Shown: piece after piece, positions 2,084-11,589 of the stretch | Numbering within the stretch: position 1 is the stretch's first letter | Layout: each line of letters opens with the position of its first letter | DNA from: Candidatus Thorarchaeota archaeon | Lineage (GTDB): Archaea > Asgardarchaeota > Thorarchaeia > Thorarchaeales > Thorarchaeaceae | Assembly (NCBI GenBank): GCA_029858305.1 | Contig: JAOUFI010000072.1 | Span: 1 to 11,714, forward strand | Length of the DNA stretch: 11,714 nucleotides | Direction of reading: 5' to 3' | Made by a program: the position numbers and the translations under genes | Notes under the pieces: generated by a model | What the model was told of the DNA's origin: nothing | Seen by the model: only the letters and a program-made list of their open reading frames with translations | Databases searched by the model: none

Positions 2084-2647
2084 TCACTCACTAGGCTTGA
2101 CAATGGGATTGCCTTCATCATCTAGCTTACCCGCTTTTCTCATGGCAATTCTGACCCATCCCATCGATTCCTCTAGGCCTGGATCTCTCACTAGTGCAAG
2201 TCTTGCTAGTTCAATCGCTTTCTCCCATCTCTCAAGCTCGTAGTTAATCTCAGCCATGTGGGCGATTGCTAAAGCCATTCGCCCCTCGATATCAAGCGCA
2301 ATTTCAAAACTTCGTAATGCATCCTCAAGAAGACCGACATTCCTTAGAAGGACGCCCTTGTTGAAGTATGGGATAGGATCATCAGGGTTCATTGTCGCCG
2401 CAGAGTCCAACTGCTGGAGTGCCTCTATTGTTAGTGGGTCGTCTTTATCTGGCTTATCCTGAGCCTGCATCAAGGCTACTGCCAGAGTAATCTTGGCATT
2501 CTTGTTGTCTGGTCTTTTTGATAGGATATTTCTCAAAAGATCAATTGCTTCTCGAACCTGCCCTTCTGATAATTTTCTTGCTGCTAGGTCATATTCCTTA
2601 TCTCTCGAACGTCTGAACAAAGGCACTAGAAACACCAACTGACTCAC
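2084..2647 (-). CDS. Tetratricopeptide repeat protein
   Basis: Tandem TPRs (PYFNKGVLLRNVGLLEDALRSFEIALDIE; AIAHMAEINYELERWEKAIELARLALVRDP). The true start may be GTG at 2626 (MPLFRR), which has a GGTG SD-like site upstream. Confidence 0.85.
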   Translation of the reverse strand: MSQLVFLVPLFRRSRDKEYDLAARKLSEGQVREAIDLLRNILSKRPDNKNAKITLAVALMQAQDKPDKDDPLTIEALQQLDSAATMNPDDPIPYFNKGVLLRNVGLLEDALRSFEIALDIEGRMALAIAHMAEINYELERWEKAIELARLALVRDPGLEESMGWVRIAMRKAGKLDDEGNPIVKPSE

Positions 2648-2699: not shown

Positions 2700-4067
2700 T
2701 TGACGAACCGTGAGAAACTCTTTGGCACGAATGGCGTGCGAGGAATCATAAACCAATCTATCACTGTGGATTTGGTACTCGACCTTGGAAAGGCAATTGG
2801 TTCAGTACTTGGTCCAGGACAGGTTGCTATCGCTCGCGATTCGAGAATGGGCGGCAAAATGTTTACGCAAGCAGTCATTGCTGGACTACTCTCCACAGGG
2901 TGTTCAATTATTGAAATTGGATTTGCTCCCACACCGACATTGCAGTTTTTTGTTCCACGATCAGGTTCTAGCGCAGGTGTCGTTGTGACCGCCTCTCACA
3001 ATCCTGCAGAGTTTAATGGAATCAAAGTCATAGGGAAGAATGGAATTGAGGTGTCTCGTTCAATTGAGGAGCGGATTACGGATGTCTACTATTCAAAGAA
3101 TTTCACAGTGGCGGCATGGAATGAAATCGGTTCAGTAGTTCAGGATGCGAGTGCGCTTCGCCAACACATTGAGGGAATCAAGACTCATGTTGATACTGCC
3201 GCCATCAGGAACAGGAATCTCACGGTCGTCATCGATTCAGCAAATAGTGTTGGTGCATTGATAACGCCAGAATTGATGCGAGAGCTTGGATGTAAAGTCA
3301 TCTCCTTGAACTCACAACTCGATGGATCCTTTCCTGGAAGAAGTCCTGAGCCAATTCTAGAAAATGTAACAGAGCTCTGTAAAACAGTACGGTCACTTGG
3401 TGCAGACATTGGCGTTGCTCATGATGGTGATGCTGATAGAGCTACCTTTGTTGATGAATCTGGTCGTGTGGTTTCTGGTGATCAATCCTTTGCATTGATA
3501 GCGAAAAGTATCCTCTCAAAACGTCCTGGTTCGACACTTGTTACTCCGGTTAGCAGTGGTAGATTGATAGAAGACATTGCCTCATCCGCTGGTGCAAGGA
3601 TTGAATGGACCACTGTCGGAAGTGTAGATGTGTCTCATAAGCTCGAGGAGATAGAGGGAGATCTAGGGGGTGAGGAGAATGGTGGTGTTTTCTATCCCCC
3701 GCATCAATCAGTCCGAGATGGACCTATGACTGTTGCACAGATAGTTGAAATAATGGCCATTGAGCAGAAACCACTTTCTCAACTCATTGATGAGCTACCA
3801 GAATACTATACCATCAAGACGAAGATTCCGGTTCCTACTGAGAAGATGAACCATATTCAAAAAGCCTTGTTGAAACTTACTGAAGGTCAGAAGCGCATCA
3901 CAATTGATGGAGTGAAAATCATCTCTAATGAGGGTTGGATTTTGTTGCGCCCTTCTGGGACTGAACCTTTGTATCGATGTTTCGTAGAGAGTAATTCACA
4001 AGAAACTGCTACAGTCTTAAGCGAAAGAGGAAGAATTCTGATTCAGAAAGCGATAGAAGAAGCCTAG
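2700..4067 (+). CDS. glmM: Phosphoglucosamine mutase / phosphomannomutase (alpha-D-phosphohexomutase family)
   Basis: LFGTNGVRG, catalytic TASHNP, metal-binding DGDADR, sugar-binding GEENGG and RPSGTEP; 455 aa, TTG start. Substrate specificity (GlmM vs PMM/PGM) cannot be resolved by eye. Confidence 0.9.
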   Translation: MTNREKLFGTNGVRGIINQSITVDLVLDLGKAIGSVLGPGQVAIARDSRMGGKMFTQAVIAGLLSTGCSIIEIGFAPTPTLQFFVPRSGSSAGVVVTASHNPAEFNGIKVIGKNGIEVSRSIEERITDVYYSKNFTVAAWNEIGSVVQDASALRQHIEGIKTHVDTAAIRNRNLTVVIDSANSVGALITPELMRELGCKVISLNSQLDGSFPGRSPEPILENVTELCKTVRSLGADIGVAHDGDADRATFVDESGRVVSGDQSFALIAKSILSKRPGSTLVTPVSSGRLIEDIASSAGARIEWTTVGSVDVSHKLEEIEGDLGGEENGGVFYPPHQSVRDGPMTVAQIVEIMAIEQKPLSQLIDELPEYYTIKTKIPVPTEKMNHIQKALLKLTEGQKRITIDGVKIISNEGWILLRPSGTEPLYRCFVESNSQETATVLSERGRILIQKAIEEA

Positions 4068-4104: not shown

Positions 4105-4122
4105 TAGGGCCTTTCGGCCCTA
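4105..4122 (-). terminator. Hairpin between convergent genes, probable terminator
   Basis: TAGGGCC-TTTC-GGCCCTA, a 7-bp perfect stem. On the minus strand the loop is GAAA (GNRA) and T-rich sequence follows. Confidence 0.6.
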
Positions 4123-4146: not shown

Positions 4147-4491
4147 CTACTCTTCTTTCTTCTCAGCAACTTCTTCTTCATCAAAGTCGAAGTCTTCGAG
4201 TGGTTCAGGAGCTGGAGTTGTAAGCATTGTCCAACCAATCCACATCGCAATGACCATTATGAGAACAACGCCGAGATAGATTGGCAGTTGAACCAGGAAG
4301 TCTGGGCTTGGATGGAAGAGACCGCCGAGGGGAGTACCGACTCCGAAGGTAGTGTCAACCCAAGTTGCCAGATCTGGGAATATCTGGAGTATAACAAGCC
4401 CCCAAGTGTAGTACAATAGTACTAGCAGTGCGAAGATGAAGATAAGAGCACCAATTACCTTTTCTTTTCCGATTGTAATTACTCTCCTCAT
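4147..4491 (-). CDS. Small two-TM membrane protein with acidic tail; DPM2/PIG-P-like
   Basis: TM1 VIGALIFIFALLVLLYYTWGLVIL, TM2 LPIYLGVVLIMVIAMWIGWTML, then TTPAPEP and an acidic C-terminus. It has its own promoter and 3' hairpin. The CDS is secure; the DPM2 similarity is by eye. Confidence 0.8.
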   Translation of the reverse strand: MRRVITIGKEKVIGALIFIFALLVLLYYTWGLVILQIFPDLATWVDTTFGVGTPLGGLFHPSPDFLVQLPIYLGVVLIMVIAMWIGWTMLTTPAPEPLEDFDFDEEEVAEKKEE

Positions 4492-4683: not shown

Positions 4684-5523
4684 TTGATTGGCAATTCACA
4701 TGATGGTACTACAAATCCTCTTGGTATTCGAGCATATGGGGTATCTGCAGCTGCAGTGAAGTACGGAATCGAATCTATTACAGGTGTCAATCCTGGACGA
4801 AATGCAGTTCATACGAAAGAAACCGGCAGGGTCTCAGTAACGCCTGAAATTTACTCAACGGTTGGTTGCTGTGATGGTTCTGGTGCAGGTGGAGGTGGAG
4901 GTGCAGACGGTGAGGGACTTCTTTGCTGTCTCCTAATCATTGCAATCTTCATGGCCGTATTTACAATAGTCTGGGCTGTGGTGATGATTGCATTCTCGAT
5001 CCTTACAGTCGGTGGTTTCCTGAAGAAACGATATCGCACATTATTCATAATTGAGAAACCGAATCGCGAGTTCATAGGCAAGATTGCACTTCATATCTTT
5101 AGGTCTGGAGGAATCCTTGAATACCCCCTTGGAAATGAAACCTATGATGAATGGATGAAACGCACATTCAGTCTCTTTGTGAGGCTCAAAATTATAAGAC
5201 AGGTCAGTTTGTTCTTTGGTTTTGGTTGGGGCTTTATCGAGGTGGCCTTCAAGGTAAATCAGATTTTGTATAATCCTGCTGACTATAACTTGTGGCCACT
5301 AAGATTTTTGATGGTCGCGATCTTCCTACCATTATTGCTATACAGTCCGGTTCTCGAGATTCAATTCAAACGATCACGTGATGTAGGTGCTGAAATCATT
5401 GAGCGTGTCCTCACTGATGAACAGACATTCGCACCAGATCATCCGATGATTTTCGAAGAAGAGCCAACAATTGTCAAACCTGTCCCAACGACGACACTCA
5501 AAGCGAAAAGAACCAAGAAATGA
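4684..5523 (+). CDS. Hypothetical membrane protein (about 3 TM segments) with a CC-(Gly-rich)-CC segment
   Basis: 279-aa ORF with TTG start, SD GGAGGT at 4672-4677 and TATA-like TTTATAT at 4615-4621. Hydrophobic segments LLCCLLIIAIFMAVFTIVWAVVMIAFSILTVGG, VSLFFGFGWGFIEVAF and FLMVAIFLPLLLYSPVL. Confidence 0.8.
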   Translation: MIGNSHDGTTNPLGIRAYGVSAAAVKYGIESITGVNPGRNAVHTKETGRVSVTPEIYSTVGCCDGSGAGGGGGADGEGLLCCLLIIAIFMAVFTIVWAVVMIAFSILTVGGFLKKRYRTLFIIEKPNREFIGKIALHIFRSGGILEYPLGNETYDEWMKRTFSLFVRLKIIRQVSLFFGFGWGFIEVAFKVNQILYNPADYNLWPLRFLMVAIFLPLLLYSPVLEIQFKRSRDVGAEIIERVLTDEQTFAPDHPMIFEEEPTIVKPVPTTTLKAKRTKK

Positions 5524-6402: not shown

Positions 6403-7602
6403 ATGGGCTTGATCTATGATAGAGATACTTGCACGGGATGCATGCTCTGCCCTAAGGCGTGTAACTTTGGAGCTATCGAGAAAGACGGTGACAAAGTAAA
6501 GTTCGATCTCGACAAGTGTGTCCTCTGCGGATCGTGTGAGGAAGTGTGCCCTGTAGATGCCATCAAGATTGAGAGGAAGAAGGTGGATGCTAATGAAATC
6601 GCTCAATACAAGAATGTCTTCGTGTTCTGTGAAACCCATGAAGGACGACTGAGAAGCGTCGCCCTTGAACTCGTCACAAAGGGAAGAGAGCTTGCTGACA
6701 AGTTGGGTGAGAAACTTGTAGCCATACTTATTGGCAATGATATTGAAGAGCATGCGCAGACCCTCATTTATCATGGTGCAGACCATGTACTTGTTGTTGA
6801 AGGAAAGATATTCACAGACTACACGACTGATGCGTACACCATAGCCATGACCTCACTCATCGCACCCAGAAAGCCAGCCATTGTCCTCTATGGTGCGACG
6901 AATAATGGTCGTGACCTGGCTCCTCGTATTGCAGCACGGCTTGCACTCGGTCTCACTGCTGACTGTACTGGCCTTGAGATTGATGAGGCACGCCAGCTCG
7001 TTCAAACAAGGCCTGCCTTTGGTGGTAATATCATGGCTGAGATTATCTCGCCCTATACTCGACCTCAAATGGCTACAGTCCGTCCGAATGTTTTCAAACC
7101 CGGAGAGCCAGACACATCGCGAAAGGGAGAGATAGAGAAGGTCAATATCGAAGTAAGCCCTATTCAGGTTCGAACACGAGTGACCGAGAAGGTCAGCGAG
7201 ATTGTTGAGGGGATGAAGTCGGTCGAAGAGGCTGACATCATTGTCTGCAGTGGAAGAGGTATCAAGGACCCCGCGAATCTTGAACTGCCGAAACAACTCG
7301 CTAAACTGCTCGATGCTGCCATTGGTGGCTCACGGCCCATTGTCGATATGGGTTGGCTTCCTCCAACTCAACAGGTCGGGCAATCAGGCCGAACCGTATG
7401 TCCAAAGCTCTATTTTGCACTTGGGATATCTGGAGCTATCCAGCATCAGATCGGAATGTCCTCATCGGACATAATTGTAGCCATAAACAAGGACCCCGAG
7501 GCTCCAATTTTCAGTATCGCAGACTTTGGAATTGTTGGAGACCTGTTTACGGTCTTACCTGAAGTCATTGCAGAAGTTAAACGAGTATTAGATTCACGAT
7601 AG
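6403..7602 (+). CDS. etfA: Electron transfer flavoprotein alpha subunit (EtfA/FixB) with N-terminal 2x[4Fe-4S] ferredoxin domain
   Basis: N-terminal CTGCMLCPKAC and CVLCGSCEEVCP. Then GRDLAPRIAA, GLTADCT, RPAFGGN, QVGQSG, GISGAIQH and [11 protein letters not shown]. Starts 2 nt after the etfB stop. Confidence 0.96.
   Translation: MGLIYDRDTCTGCMLCPKACNFGAIEKDGDKVKFDLDKCVLCGSCEEVCPVDAIKIERKKVDANEIAQYKNVFVFCETHEGRLRSVALELVTKGRELADKLGEKLVAILIGNDIEEHAQTLIYHGADHVLVVEGKIFTDYTTDAYTIAMTSLIAPRKPAIVLYGATNNGRDLAPRIAARLALGLTADCTGLEIDEARQLVQTRPAFGGNIMAEIISPYTRPQMATVRPNVFKPGEPDTSRKGEIEKVNIEVSPIQVRTRVTEKVSEIVEGMKSVEEADIIVCSGRGIKDPANLELPKQLAKLLDAAIGGSRPIVDMGWLPPTQQVGQSGRTVCPKLYFALGISGAIQHQIGMSSSDIIVAINKDPEAPIFSIADFGIVGDLFTVLPEVIAEVKRVLDSR
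7478..7602 (+). repeat. Direct repeat copy 1 (3' end of etfA)
   Basis: Aligns without gaps to 9242-9366; 22 mismatches in 125 nt (about 82% identity) by manual count. Confidence 0.95.
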
Positions 7603-7666: not shown

Positions 7667-9079
7667 CTACCACGGCTGCTGAAGAAGTTGTATCCAGAAA
7701 TACATGAATCCTGACAGTGTTTCATTCTCTGCTGCAAAAATCTTCATCACGAAAGTAAACGCCCCAGAATCAAATCCAAGATCCCAGGAACCACCCATGC
7801 CTCCCCAGTTGCCCTCTGTCCTATTGTCGTAGTCACACAATACTCTTCGACCGGTTTCATTTAACACCTGAAAATCGGATGAGGACATGTTTAGCATGGA
7901 GTAGTAGACGCTCACCTCTTCAGGAGCGTTTCCCCAGTCTTCGACAACGCAATCATAATGCAGGAAATTTCGTTGTCCGTAACGTGAAGGCTGGACATTA
8001 CATGAGAAGACATACCAATAACCAAGGACAACCTGTTCTCCTGCTTCGGGGCTTTGATAAAAAATGACAGTAGTCTGTTCAACAACGAAGGAGGAATACA
8101 TAGCTGTTCCAGATGCCCCTATGGTCAAGACAATTATGACAAGAACCGCGAGAGATGCTCTGCGTATTCTTAGACTGCGTCTTATTCTTGTATGGATTCC
8201 TTGACGTTCTAATTCAGACTCCCAGACTCCAGCACTCGTGTGTACTTCTGCCATCTTCGACCAGTGAAGTGTGTTGATCTTGAAAAACTTGGTACTGACA
8301 AGGAGCCCTGTAAGAGAAATGAGTGCAAGCACTGCGAGCGACAGTAAAATCGAGCCCAACGTTGCTTCGAATCCAAAGTAGGATGCGAGACTTGTTCCAT
8401 GCTCAGGACTGTAGCCAGAAATAGACCCTGCAAAGACTCTTACAATACTGGAAGGACTCAGCATTGCTATGCCCCGTGTCACTGATGCCCAGATAGCTCC
8501 GGGACTATAGCCTACCATGGTTGCTAGCCCAAATGTCACTGCACACCCCATAGTTGTGGAAATTATTACCTCGTCTGAAATCATCACAAAGAATACGCCA
8601 ATTGATGCCAGAAGCAACGAAACAACAAATGTCGCTACTAGAACTGAGGGAAGATAGACTAGAAAGCCCGTGCCTCTAGGTTGATAGAATGAAGTTCTCG
8701 ATAGATAAGGTTCCAAAAACAGGGCACTTGTGACTATGACACTGAACATCAATACAAGGGCATAGGTTTCAAGCAGACATCGAAGAATAACCTCTATGGG
8801 ACTCCTTCCAGACTTTAGCAGTGCCAGAATATGCGTTTTTGCAGCGGATGTTCCAAAAACGATGCTTGCTGATAAGAACACAGGAATGCCAATTATCAAG
8901 ACATATGATATTACGTTTATCGCATTAACAAGAACTGAGAACTCATCTTCAAAGCCAACAAATGGACGAACTAAGTAGCAAAAAAGAATAACAATGCTCG
9001 AAGCGATTACCCATATTATCAACCAGGTCTTTGTGATACAAAATCGACTGATTTTTGACTCATCTTTGCTCTCCTCCAC
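7667..9079 (-). CDS. Multi-pass membrane protein (ABC-2 permease-like N-terminal region, extracytoplasmic C-terminal domain)
   Basis: 470 aa, about 7 hydrophobic segments, and an ILALLKSGRSPIEVIL loop recalling the ABC-2 LLxxPxSR loop. The C-terminal domain has NxS/T sequons (NMS, NET, NRT, NET). GTG start with GGAG upstream. The family call is tentative. Confidence 0.75.
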   Translation of the reverse strand: MEESKDESKISRFCITKTWLIIWVIASSIVILFCYLVRPFVGFEDEFSVLVNAINVISYVLIIGIPVFLSASIVFGTSAAKTHILALLKSGRSPIEVILRCLLETYALVLMFSVIVTSALFLEPYLSRTSFYQPRGTGFLVYLPSVLVATFVVSLLLASIGVFFVMISDEVIISTTMGCAVTFGLATMVGYSPGAIWASVTRGIAMLSPSSIVRVFAGSISGYSPEHGTSLASYFGFEATLGSILLSLAVLALISLTGLLVSTKFFKINTLHWSKMAEVHTSAGVWESELERQGIHTRIRRSLRIRRASLAVLVIIVLTIGASGTAMYSSFVVEQTTVIFYQSPEAGEQVVLGYWYVFSCNVQPSRYGQRNFLHYDCVVEDWGNAPEEVSVYYSMLNMSSSDFQVLNETGRRVLCDYDNRTEGNWGGMGGSWDLGFDSGAFTFVMKIFAAENETLSGFMYFWIQLLQQPW

Positions 9080-9241
9080 GATAATCCGCTCCTATGGAAC
9101 ATTCATCTATGCTAAGTCGACGGATATCCATCGTATGAGAATGCACAGAATACTACGTGATACGATATAGTATGTAAGACGATATATATTTAGTGGTCAC
9201 AGATATATCTTACTGCTATAGAGATTTGATTCTCTATGTGT

Positions 9242-9366
9242 TAGCCATCAACAAGGACCCAGAAGCTCCAATCTTCAGCATTGCTGACTTTGGCATTGTG
9301 GGTGATATCTTCACAGTTCTGCCTGAAGTGATTGCAGAAGTTAAACGAGTATTAGACACAAGATAG
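9242..9366 (+). pseudogene. etfA: Duplicated 3' fragment of etfA (direct repeat copy 2)
   Basis: Encodes [40 protein letters not shown], 38/40 aa identical to the EtfA C-terminus. Similarity stops abruptly upstream of 9242 and after the TAG. Confidence 0.9.
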
Positions 9367-11257: not shown

Positions 11258-11494
11258 CTAGAAGTCGTAAGCCTTCAGGGTCTTTCGCTTGTTATCCTTA
11301 CAGCGTCCTGCAGCTTGATGCAGTACATTATGGACGGCCATGTTGAATGCATCGTATGCATCGCTGCCGACCATCATATCATTATCACGGGCAAAGTCCT
11401 GCACTGCCTTCTTAACATAGAAGGTGTACTTTGGTGCCTTAGCTGCTGGTTTCTTAGCTGCTGGCTTAGCCGCTGGTTTTGGTTTCTTTGACAT
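11258..11494 (-). CDS. Histone-fold protein (alpha3-truncated, face-to-face-like) with a Lys/Ala/Pro-rich N-terminal tail, 78 aa
   Basis: ATG at 11494 with SD AGGGGT at 11506-11501. Fold: YVKKAVQDFARDN (a1), MMVGSDA (L1), a2 to AAGRCKDN, then RKTLKAYDF (the RKTxxxxD clamp) at the C-terminus. Tail: MSKKPKPAAKPAAKKPAAKAPK. Confidence 0.88.
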   Translation of the reverse strand: MSKKPKPAAKPAAKKPAAKAPKYTFYVKKAVQDFARDNDMMVGSDAYDAFNMAVHNVLHQAAGRCKDNKRKTLKAYDF

Positions 11495-11589
11495 TTTTTT
11501 ACCCCTAATGTGGTTTCCTGCATGGAAAGGCTGGCAACAAGTTGTTTCCGCACCCCCAAGCAAAGGTAAAGATTTCCATAGTCATCTTG

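Follow-up and report, generated by a model that had tools for sequence, protein, structure and literature searches.

The stretch of DNA considered here (the window, 11,714 nt) is a whole contig, JAOUFI010000072.1, of a Candidatus Thorarchaeota archaeon genome of 3.04 Mb in 205 contigs that is 88.9% complete (genome label G000). At positions 4147-4491 of its reverse strand lies a gene for a small membrane protein (hereafter the window protein) that the original prediction, made from the sequence alone, had likened to eukaryotic DPM2. DPM2 is the small subunit of dolichol-phosphate (Dol-P) mannose synthase (DPMS) and of glycosylphosphatidylinositol (GPI)-GlcNAc transferase, and in eukaryotes it ends in a short basic stretch; PIG-P is a subunit of GPI-GlcNAc transferase. 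The open reading frame (ORF) is a real gene, far beyond chance: a sequence search returned 155 homologues at E ≤ 0.01, and 29 columns are invariant across the 41 sequences of Thorarchaeota (Thor) type in alignment A1. The named homologues are mostly Thorarchaeota, and so are the closest named ones. The gene and the segments of its product, which has two transmembrane (TM) helices, are as follows.

4147-4491, minus strand: gene for the DPM2/PIG-P-like two-TM protein, 114 aa, with an ATG start and its stop codon at 4147-4149
4468-4491, minus strand: residues 1-8, the basic N-terminus MRRVITIG (alignment), predicted to be cytosolic by the positive-inside rule
4381-4467, minus strand: residues 9-37, helix 1 (TM1) of the AlphaFold2 model, with K-E-K-x-x-G14 and Y27-Y28-T29-W30
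4306-4380, minus strand: residues 38-62, a variable loop with two short helices (39-49 and 54-59 in the AlphaFold2 model) and no Lys or Arg, predicted to face outside
4219-4305, minus strand: residues 63-91, helix 2 (TM2) of the AlphaFold2 model, ending in W84-I85-G86-W87-T88-M89
4150-4218, minus strand: residues 92-114, a Pro-rich turn and acidic tail, T-P-A-P-E-P-L-E-D-F-D-F-D-E-E... (alignment), a putative cytosolic docking peptide

The AlphaFold2 model, built on 41 relatives, has a mean pLDDT of 87.6 and describes a helical hairpin in which the two long helices are joined by the loop and its two short helices, while the tail is disordered (pLDDT 55-60). Since the N-terminus is basic and the loop lacks Lys and Arg, both termini are predicted to lie in the cytoplasm. 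In the alignment, the relatives begin with MGKEK at the position of I7. The strings quoted in the original prediction are exact, corresponding to residues 10-35 and 59-90 of the translated ORF, and the spacings it named are all present in the window protein (G14; Y27-Y28-T29-W30; F59-x-P61; P70-x3-G74; I85-x3-M89-L90; T91-T92-P93). The original prediction likened these spacings to those of eukaryotic DPM2; the likeness to eukaryotic DPM2 and PIG-P was assessed here via Pfam profiles only.

The window protein is one of a large archaeal family. Searching 1.84 billion cluster representatives with a profile yielded 203 at E ≤ 0.001, small archaeal proteins built on a common plan: K-[DE]-[KQR]-x-x-G at the N-terminus; Tyr, in 80 of 91 diverse members, at the 14th residue past the Gly; a loop of highly variable length; and a second helix that ends in W-I-G-[WY]-T-M, with T-T-P-[PA]-P-x-P-[IL]-E and then an acidic tail after it. 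On TM1 a G-x12-Y[TS] face is conserved. Every one of these elements is found in the window protein, which matches the family profile with an E value of 2.5e-54. The conserved small-protein family with a WIGxTxxTTP signature that the original prediction mentioned is thus real and large, as both cluster and genome searches attest. G14, W84 and G86 are invariant in the 91 diverse members and I85 is Ile in 88 of them. Among the Thor-type sequences, W84-I-G-W-T-M and T91-T-P-A-P-E-P-L-E-D-F are invariant (41/41), and in the wider family the tail is kept as TTP[PA]PxP[IL]E[ED]. G74 is not among the invariant or near-invariant columns of A1, whose consensus at this position is Ala. The Tyr-Tyr-Thr triplet is present in the Thor members (Y27 in 41/41, Y28 in 40/41, T29 in 39/41 and W30 in 41/41). 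Across the 91 diverse members the second position alone is retained (Tyr in 80), the first being Tyr in 11 and the third Thr or Ser in 32, and among 19 loci other than that of the window YY[TS] is present in three and Y[TS] in 15, so that the full triplet is not conserved across Asgard archaea.

The range of the family was sampled in two phyla, Asgard archaea and a second phylum that contains a Nitrososphaerales record and corresponds to Thermoproteota in GTDB. Of the 201 Asgard genomes sampled, 164 match the family profile; the count is 79 among the 85 of high quality, and 55 of 59 genera are represented. In Thermoproteota 187 of 201 genomes have matches, often with two copies. Record titles of the matching loci include Thor-, Prometh-, Hermod-, Odin-, Baldr-, Jord- and Atabey-archaea, Bathyarchaeia, Nitrososphaerales and Thermoproteota. 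The family is therefore old, near-universal in the Asgard archaea and Thermoproteota sampled, and not specific to Asgard archaea; being about equally common in Thermoproteota, it does not qualify as an Asgard-restricted eukaryotic signature protein. Many Thermoproteota genomes hold two to four family matches and most matching Asgard genomes hold one, and the multiple copies suggest separate duplications outside eukaryotes. Some members (P0195, P0210, P0220, P0259; L195:8-460) also carry C-terminal extensions of 50-190 residues beyond the acidic tail, in which helix-hairpin-helix-like G-I-G motifs can be seen by eye. These extensions, if they are real helix-hairpin-helix domains, speak for a cytoplasmic C-terminus.

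Shorter relatives were found in one Asgard family (f5), where the DPM2 profile detects proteins of 82-97 aa that the Thor profile A1 partly misses; three genomes (G045, G068 and G080) have a match to the DPM2 profile and none to A1. Their sources are named Heimdallarchaeota or Heimdallarchaeaceae and their products are labelled as hypothetical or mislabelled. An alignment of these Heimdall forms (A6) with the wide family gives an hhalign probability of 98.3% and an E value of 1.8e-14 over 74 columns. Like the family, the short forms have an N-terminal [KN]-[DE]-K-x-x-G and a W-I-G end of TM2. Unlike the window protein, they have a short loop and, in place of T-T-P-P-P and the acidic tail, a basic K-[NT]-R-A-P stretch.

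Pfam profiles support a distant relationship of the family to eukaryotic DPM2 and PIG-P, and they do so far more strongly for the family than for the window protein. The top Pfam match of the window protein is DPM2 (PF07297), a colinear alignment of residues 10-91 to profile positions 2-71 of 75 (E 0.0024) that stops at residue 91 and leaves the tail outside. At 18.5 bits it stays below the cut-off of 27.3; the proposed kinship holds at the level of the family and is weakly supported by the window protein on its own. Three relatives score at or over the cut-off (P0094, 30.5 bits; P0055, 27.9; P0048, 27.3). When 201 Asgard genomes were searched in six frames with the DPM2 profile, 30 gave a score above the curated cut-off, the best being 54.3 bits, and none of 14 control genomes had a match at E ≤ 0.001. 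In Asgard genomes, the places found by the DPM2 profile and by the family profile overlap wherever both are listed (14 such rows). In the whole 3.04-Mb genome of the window, the sole DPM2-profile match is ORF 4147-4491. At E ≤ 0.01, 30 of the 41 Thor members match DPM2 and 14 match PIG-P. For the 91 diverse members the order is reversed, with 47 matching PIG-P (PF08510; best E 2.3e-10) and 34 matching DPM2 (best E 1.7e-8). Among 101 Thermoproteota genomes the PIG-P profile matched 17, in a single case over the cut-off, and it matched none of the 14 controls; for 13 of the 17, the matched place overlaps one that is also listed with the family profile. The top PIG-P scores among relatives are 40.2 bits (G301), 35.7 and 32.0 (G001). 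Of five Asgard genomes that are complete or nearly so, four have the family locus as their best PIG-P match and three have it as their best DPM2 match. A comparison with unrelated two-TM proteins, which had been put forward as a check, came out in favor of the relationship: none of 37 small two-TM ORFs from the same genome, some of which may not be genes, matched DPM2, PIG-P or the holin family discussed below. In the ESM Atlas, the nearest clusters are archaeal relatives only, with no eukaryotic cluster among them; one Thor cluster is automatically named after DPM2 and one carries PF07297 on 11% of its members. Taken at the level of profiles, the chain of evidence runs from the window protein to the Thor family, from there to the wide archaeal family, and on to Odin- and Heimdall-type members that pass the Pfam cut-off for DPM2.

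The homology of archaeal proteins to DPM2 and PIG-P is already known in outline. A passage in PMC12872463 lists 'DPM2 and PIGP' as a duplication of archaeal origin that predates the last ancestor common to eukaryotes (LECA), so that the view of DPM2 as eukaryotic, which the original prediction repeated, is outdated; the DPM2-based name of the Thor cluster in the ESM Atlas points the same way. Our literature searches on DPM2 and PIG-P in archaea turned up no account of how widely the family ranges, of the motif in its tail, of the short forms in Heimdall archaea or of the gene context.

Like DPM2, the window protein is a small two-TM hairpin that covers the profile nearly end to end. The Heimdall-type members are within or just above the size of DPM2, which a passage in PMC5526996 gives as 80-90 aa. 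Unlike DPM2, the window protein reaches 114 aa, because its loop is longer (25 residues, with two short helices) and it carries in addition a conserved Pro-rich acidic tail of 23 residues. A different arrangement is seen in the type-III DPMS of Pyrococcus furiosus (2017), in which, according to the same article, TMH1 and TMH3 resemble human DPM2 and the two pairs of TM helices may correspond topologically to DPM2 and DPM3. In that enzyme (5mlz and others), unlike in the archaeal family, the hairpins are fused to the catalytic domain, and no Pyrococcus DPMS chain is listed when the family profile is searched against PDB at E ≤ 10. A 181-aa ORF in one genome (L196:169-711, G009 contig C3) reads as two tandem DPM2-like hairpins without the acidic tail, its first half scoring 29.8 bits on DPM2; with its four TM helices in one chain, it is reminiscent of the hairpin pair in the Pyrococcus enzyme. 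A later article from the group that solved that structure (PMC12992685, 2026) states that the eukaryotic TM subunits are expected to be structurally distinct.

The genomic surroundings of the gene bear on its function. Immediately downstream in the window are two further features.

2700-4067, plus strand: archaeal GlmM-type phosphohexomutase, convergent neighbor (Pfam PGM_PMM domains I-IV; TIGR03990 Arch_GlmM, 549.3 bits against a cut-off of 439)
4105-4122, no strand: inverted repeat read by eye, with GC-rich 7-bp arms around a loop of 4 nt, located between the stop codons of the convergent genes

The mutase and small-protein genes end toward each other, at 4067 and 4147, and a scan for bacterial-type terminators found none at the inverted repeat between them. 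The mutase adjoins the small-protein gene in 11 of 19 Thor loci, which were compared with 1.5-kb flanks such that absent neighbors may be out of range. It is also adjacent to the gene in 4 of 21 sources drawn from many Asgard families, the four belonging to f1, f2, f3 and f21; two of the 21 sources (L029 and L030) are near-duplicates. The link had been called weak on account of the convergent orientation, and its recurrence in the Thor loci and in three further Asgard families makes it stronger than that. In two of those Asgard sources the mutase is flanked by a SIS/GlmS-like gene. A cupin of the mannose-6-phosphate isomerase type is near the gene in 5 of the 21 sources, with a PfkB kinase beside the cupin in three of them. 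Outside the Thor core, a sugar-1-phosphate nucleotidyltransferase adjoins the gene in 15 of 56 loci, 11 from Bathyarchaeia and four from Asgard archaea. In ten of the eleven Bathyarchaeia loci, those with both ORFs listed, the family gene starts 38-118 nt downstream of the nucleotidyltransferase on the same strand; in the four Asgard loci the nucleotidyltransferase is divergent from the family gene or one gene away. Three different enzymes of nucleotide-sugar supply thus recur beside the gene in separate lineages, which fits a role in glycosylation without proving it. Proteins of 551 and 582 aa encoded downstream in Bathyarchaeia were considered as partners and set aside, as they have no Pfam or NCBIfam match and no predicted TM segment.

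The identity of the mutase also bears on the comparison with PIG-P, since GlmM feeds the synthesis of UDP-GlcNAc and the PIG-P complex uses UDP-GlcNAc. The neighboring mutase falls in an NCBIfam equivalog named phosphoglucosamine mutase, and PIG-P is the commonest Pfam match across the wide archaeal family, including family loci in Thermoproteota. The window protein, unlike PIG-P, scores just 8.1 bits on the PIG-P profile, and its genome has no match to the PIGA domain.

Parts of a lipid-linked glycosylation pathway are encoded in the window genome, with a Glycos_transf_4 match of the AglH/Alg7 type (102.2 bits) and an STT3 (AglB) match (172.6 bits). Its family 2 glycosyltransferases (GT2s) are generic; one of them, on contig C19, was examined as a candidate partner and rejected as a generic GT2 in a sugar-modification cluster that is not DPMS-like. 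Related Thor genomes encode a GT2 of 230 aa without TM helix that matches P. furiosus DPMS (5mlz) with an E value of 2.3e-45 over chain residues 27-251 of 374, that is, over the catalytic part only. Its residues D89-A90-D91, H94, S116-R117, R131 and S135 are invariant in 22 of 22 sequences, and these positions are the ones that define DPMS in PMC12992685. The GT2 gene is placed between a nucleotidyltransferase and a GT87-type membrane transferase (L161:1-2474, G124 contig C5; L163, G075 contig C3), and judged from sequence the cluster would amount to an archaeal 'type II-like' gene set for Dol-P-mannose synthesis. The TM-less enzyme resembles the human 'type II' layout, which PMC12992685 treats as eukaryotic. 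At E ≤ 0.1, four of five genomes with this GT2 lack a match to DPM3; in the fifth a weak hit of 17.2 bits lies inside a 473-aa frame. When the window genome was searched by tblastn with such a DPM1-type locus, only the neighboring nucleotidyltransferase was found, followed by a different ORF. Of 14 genomes in the genus of the window, the GT2 query matched 6, and 13 have the small protein. Two genomes (G070, 97%; G017, 92%) have a GT2 match without the small protein. Presence of the two is hence uncoupled in both directions, and the small protein, if it is a glycosyltransferase subunit, is not tied to that one enzyme. A complex prediction for a Thor DPMS-type GT2 with the small protein of the same genome gave a score of 0.01 against a mark of 0.32, which speaks neither for nor against binding.

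On balance, our findings make it likely that the gene is the Thorarchaeota-type member of an ancient archaeal hairpin family that is the prokaryotic counterpart of DPM2 and PIG-P, and that its product is a non-catalytic glycosyltransferase subunit. The enzyme it serves is probably a membrane-associated glycosyltransferase that makes lipid-linked sugars. By analogy with DPM2 and PIG-P, the small protein would carry out no catalysis itself and would hold or stabilize a glycosyltransferase facing the cytoplasm. With a nucleotide sugar as donor, this partner would transfer a sugar to a lipid of the membrane, for example dolichol phosphate, and the conserved acidic tail may act as a docking peptide for a soluble partner.

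Several observations weigh against this interpretation. The window protein is below the DPM2 cut-off, with a genome-wide E value of 0.216, and far under that of PIG-P (E 3.2, cut-off 39.3 bits). Moreover, when the DPM2 profile was run on the other 43 genomes of family f1, to which the window belongs, no match attained E ≤ 0.001, and the membership of the window protein rests on transitivity via relatives. Sub-threshold matches to Phage_holin_3_6 (Holin-X, PF07332) are also given by 46 of the 91 diverse members (best E 2.4e-6), and shared hairpin architecture may be part of the DPM2/PIG-P signal. Searches of PDB sequences with phmmer and hmmsearch, using the window protein, A1 and A2, returned no DPM2, PIG-P or DPMS chain (the best rows, integrin beta-3, P2X2 and DHHC20 at E 0.02-0.9, were read as noise), and Foldseek found no solved structure with a matching fold. 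Neighbors unrelated to sugars are common: genes for electron transfer flavoprotein (ETF) in 16 of 19 Thor loci, the S19-L22-S3 ribosomal cluster in Asgard sources (S19 in 8 of 21), and an upstream S-adenosylhomocysteine (AdoHcy) hydrolase in 32 of the 56 loci that lie beyond the Thor core. As for partners, the 88.9%-complete window genome yielded no DPM1-type GT2 (by tblastn and genome search), no DPM3 match and no PIGA-domain (PF08288) match; it also yielded no GPI2 (PF06432) match, which says little as the GPI2 control matched no genome. At this completeness the partners count as not found rather than absent. A regulatory role in a DPM synthase of this organism is thus hypothetical. Well-assembled genomes, for example G103 (97%), G027 (98%) and G008 (99%), likewise have the small protein and no DPM1-type match.

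In an alternative that we regard as rather unlikely, the family would consist of conserved membrane anchors of archaea whose function lies outside glycosylation. The acidic tail would then recruit some other cytosolic partner, and the likeness to DPM2 and PIG-P would be convergent hairpin architecture or reflect homology without shared function. In its favor, sub-threshold Holin-X matches are as frequent as those to DPM2 (46 versus 34 of 91), the tail, the most conserved part, lies outside the DPM2 profile match, the neighbors are as heterogeneous as ETF, ribosomal proteins and AdoHcy hydrolase, and presence is independent of the DPM1-type GT2; the C-terminal extensions with a helix-hairpin-helix look in some members agree with it as well. 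It is harder to reconcile with the 30 Asgard genomes in which the DPM2 cut-off is passed, by scores of up to 54.3 bits, and with the silence of the 14 controls and of the 37 unrelated two-TM ORFs. It also leaves the recurrence of three nucleotide-sugar enzymes as neighbors across separate lineages without a place.

In a broader proposal, which is speculative and which we hold to be unlikely, Asgard and TACK archaea would already have possessed 'split' synthases of lipid-linked sugars of the eukaryotic type, with a universal DPM2/PIG-P-type hairpin holding a soluble, TM-less glycosyltransferase at the membrane and the acidic tail taking the tethering part of human DPM3. Several enzymes that use dolichol phosphate would be served by the hairpin, which would therefore be retained where the DPM1-type enzyme is missing. 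The tail would have been lost in the Heimdall lineage, and a duplication into DPM2 and PIG-P would have followed before LECA.

A more specific role, in which the small protein would regulate a split Dol-P-mannose synthase like that of eukaryotes, as the subunit that anchors or stabilizes a TM-less DPM1-type catalytic subunit, appears improbable. In its favor, related Thor genomes do encode the TM-less GT2 with DPMS-defining residues, between a nucleotidyltransferase and a GT87-type transferase, and the lack of a DPM3 match in four of five of them would call for another anchor. A statement in PMC4973528 that the TM-less Dpm1 type is possibly ancestral and of proteoarchaeal origin would also agree. 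The window genome, however, yielded no such GT2, and the distribution of enzyme and small protein in the genus of the window (6 versus 13 of 14) and beyond is uncoupled in both directions. Finally, it is highly improbable that the gene encodes a holin-like pore-forming protein of a prophage or defense island: the two-TM hairpin and the sub-threshold PF07332 matches of 46 of the 91 members are its only recommendation, but the members scored reach 16.7-20.8 bits against a cut-off of 28.4 and none attains it, the window protein has no PF07332 match at E ≤ 10, most Asgard genomes that have the gene carry one match and most Thermoproteota one or two, and the neighbors are housekeeping genes with no adjoining phage genes.

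Other features of the window deserve a brief description. On the minus strand, a ribosomal protein S19 gene (1576-1986) stands alone between two TPR-repeat genes (3-1424 and 2084-2647, minus strand); in other Asgard lineages, L22 and S3 follow S19 near the DPM2-like gene. The divergent neighbor of the small-protein gene (4684-5523, plus strand) is a 279-aa ORF that by eye has a Gly-rich stretch and several hydrophobic ones, with no Pfam match and a counterpart in only one (L014) of the 19 Thor loci. A 125-nt direct repeat with 82% identity (7478-7602 and 9242-9366) flanks a 470-aa multi-TM gene without Pfam match (7667-9079, minus strand). The second copy lies within a 57-aa ORF (9193-9366, plus strand) in which the ~40 C-terminal residues encoded by the ETF-alpha gene (6403-7602) recur, and the repeats and this ORF look like the remnant of a rearrangement or insertion. 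A 101-aa ORF at 11258-11563 (minus strand), in which a stretch rich in Lys, Ala and Pro at the N-terminus precedes a compact domain and which has no Pfam match at E ≤ 0.001, resembles by eye a chromatin protein with a basic tail.

Our results extend the one-line statement in print by the range of the family across Asgard archaea and Thermoproteota, the acidic tail with its invariant Pro-rich motif, the short Heimdall forms that lack this tail, the nucleotide-sugar genes that recur as neighbors and the TM-less DPMS-type enzymes of some Thorarchaeota. Of DPM2 and PIG-P, small subunits in the membrane of the endoplasmic reticulum, and their part in the synthesis of Dol-P-mannose and GPI, a passage in PMC5526996 says that 'the exact role is unknown'. 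A near-universal prokaryotic family in the two archaeal phyla closest to eukaryotes would offer a simpler and genetically tractable setting in which to approach this role, and may anchor one more piece of the glycosylation machinery of the endoplasmic reticulum in archaea.

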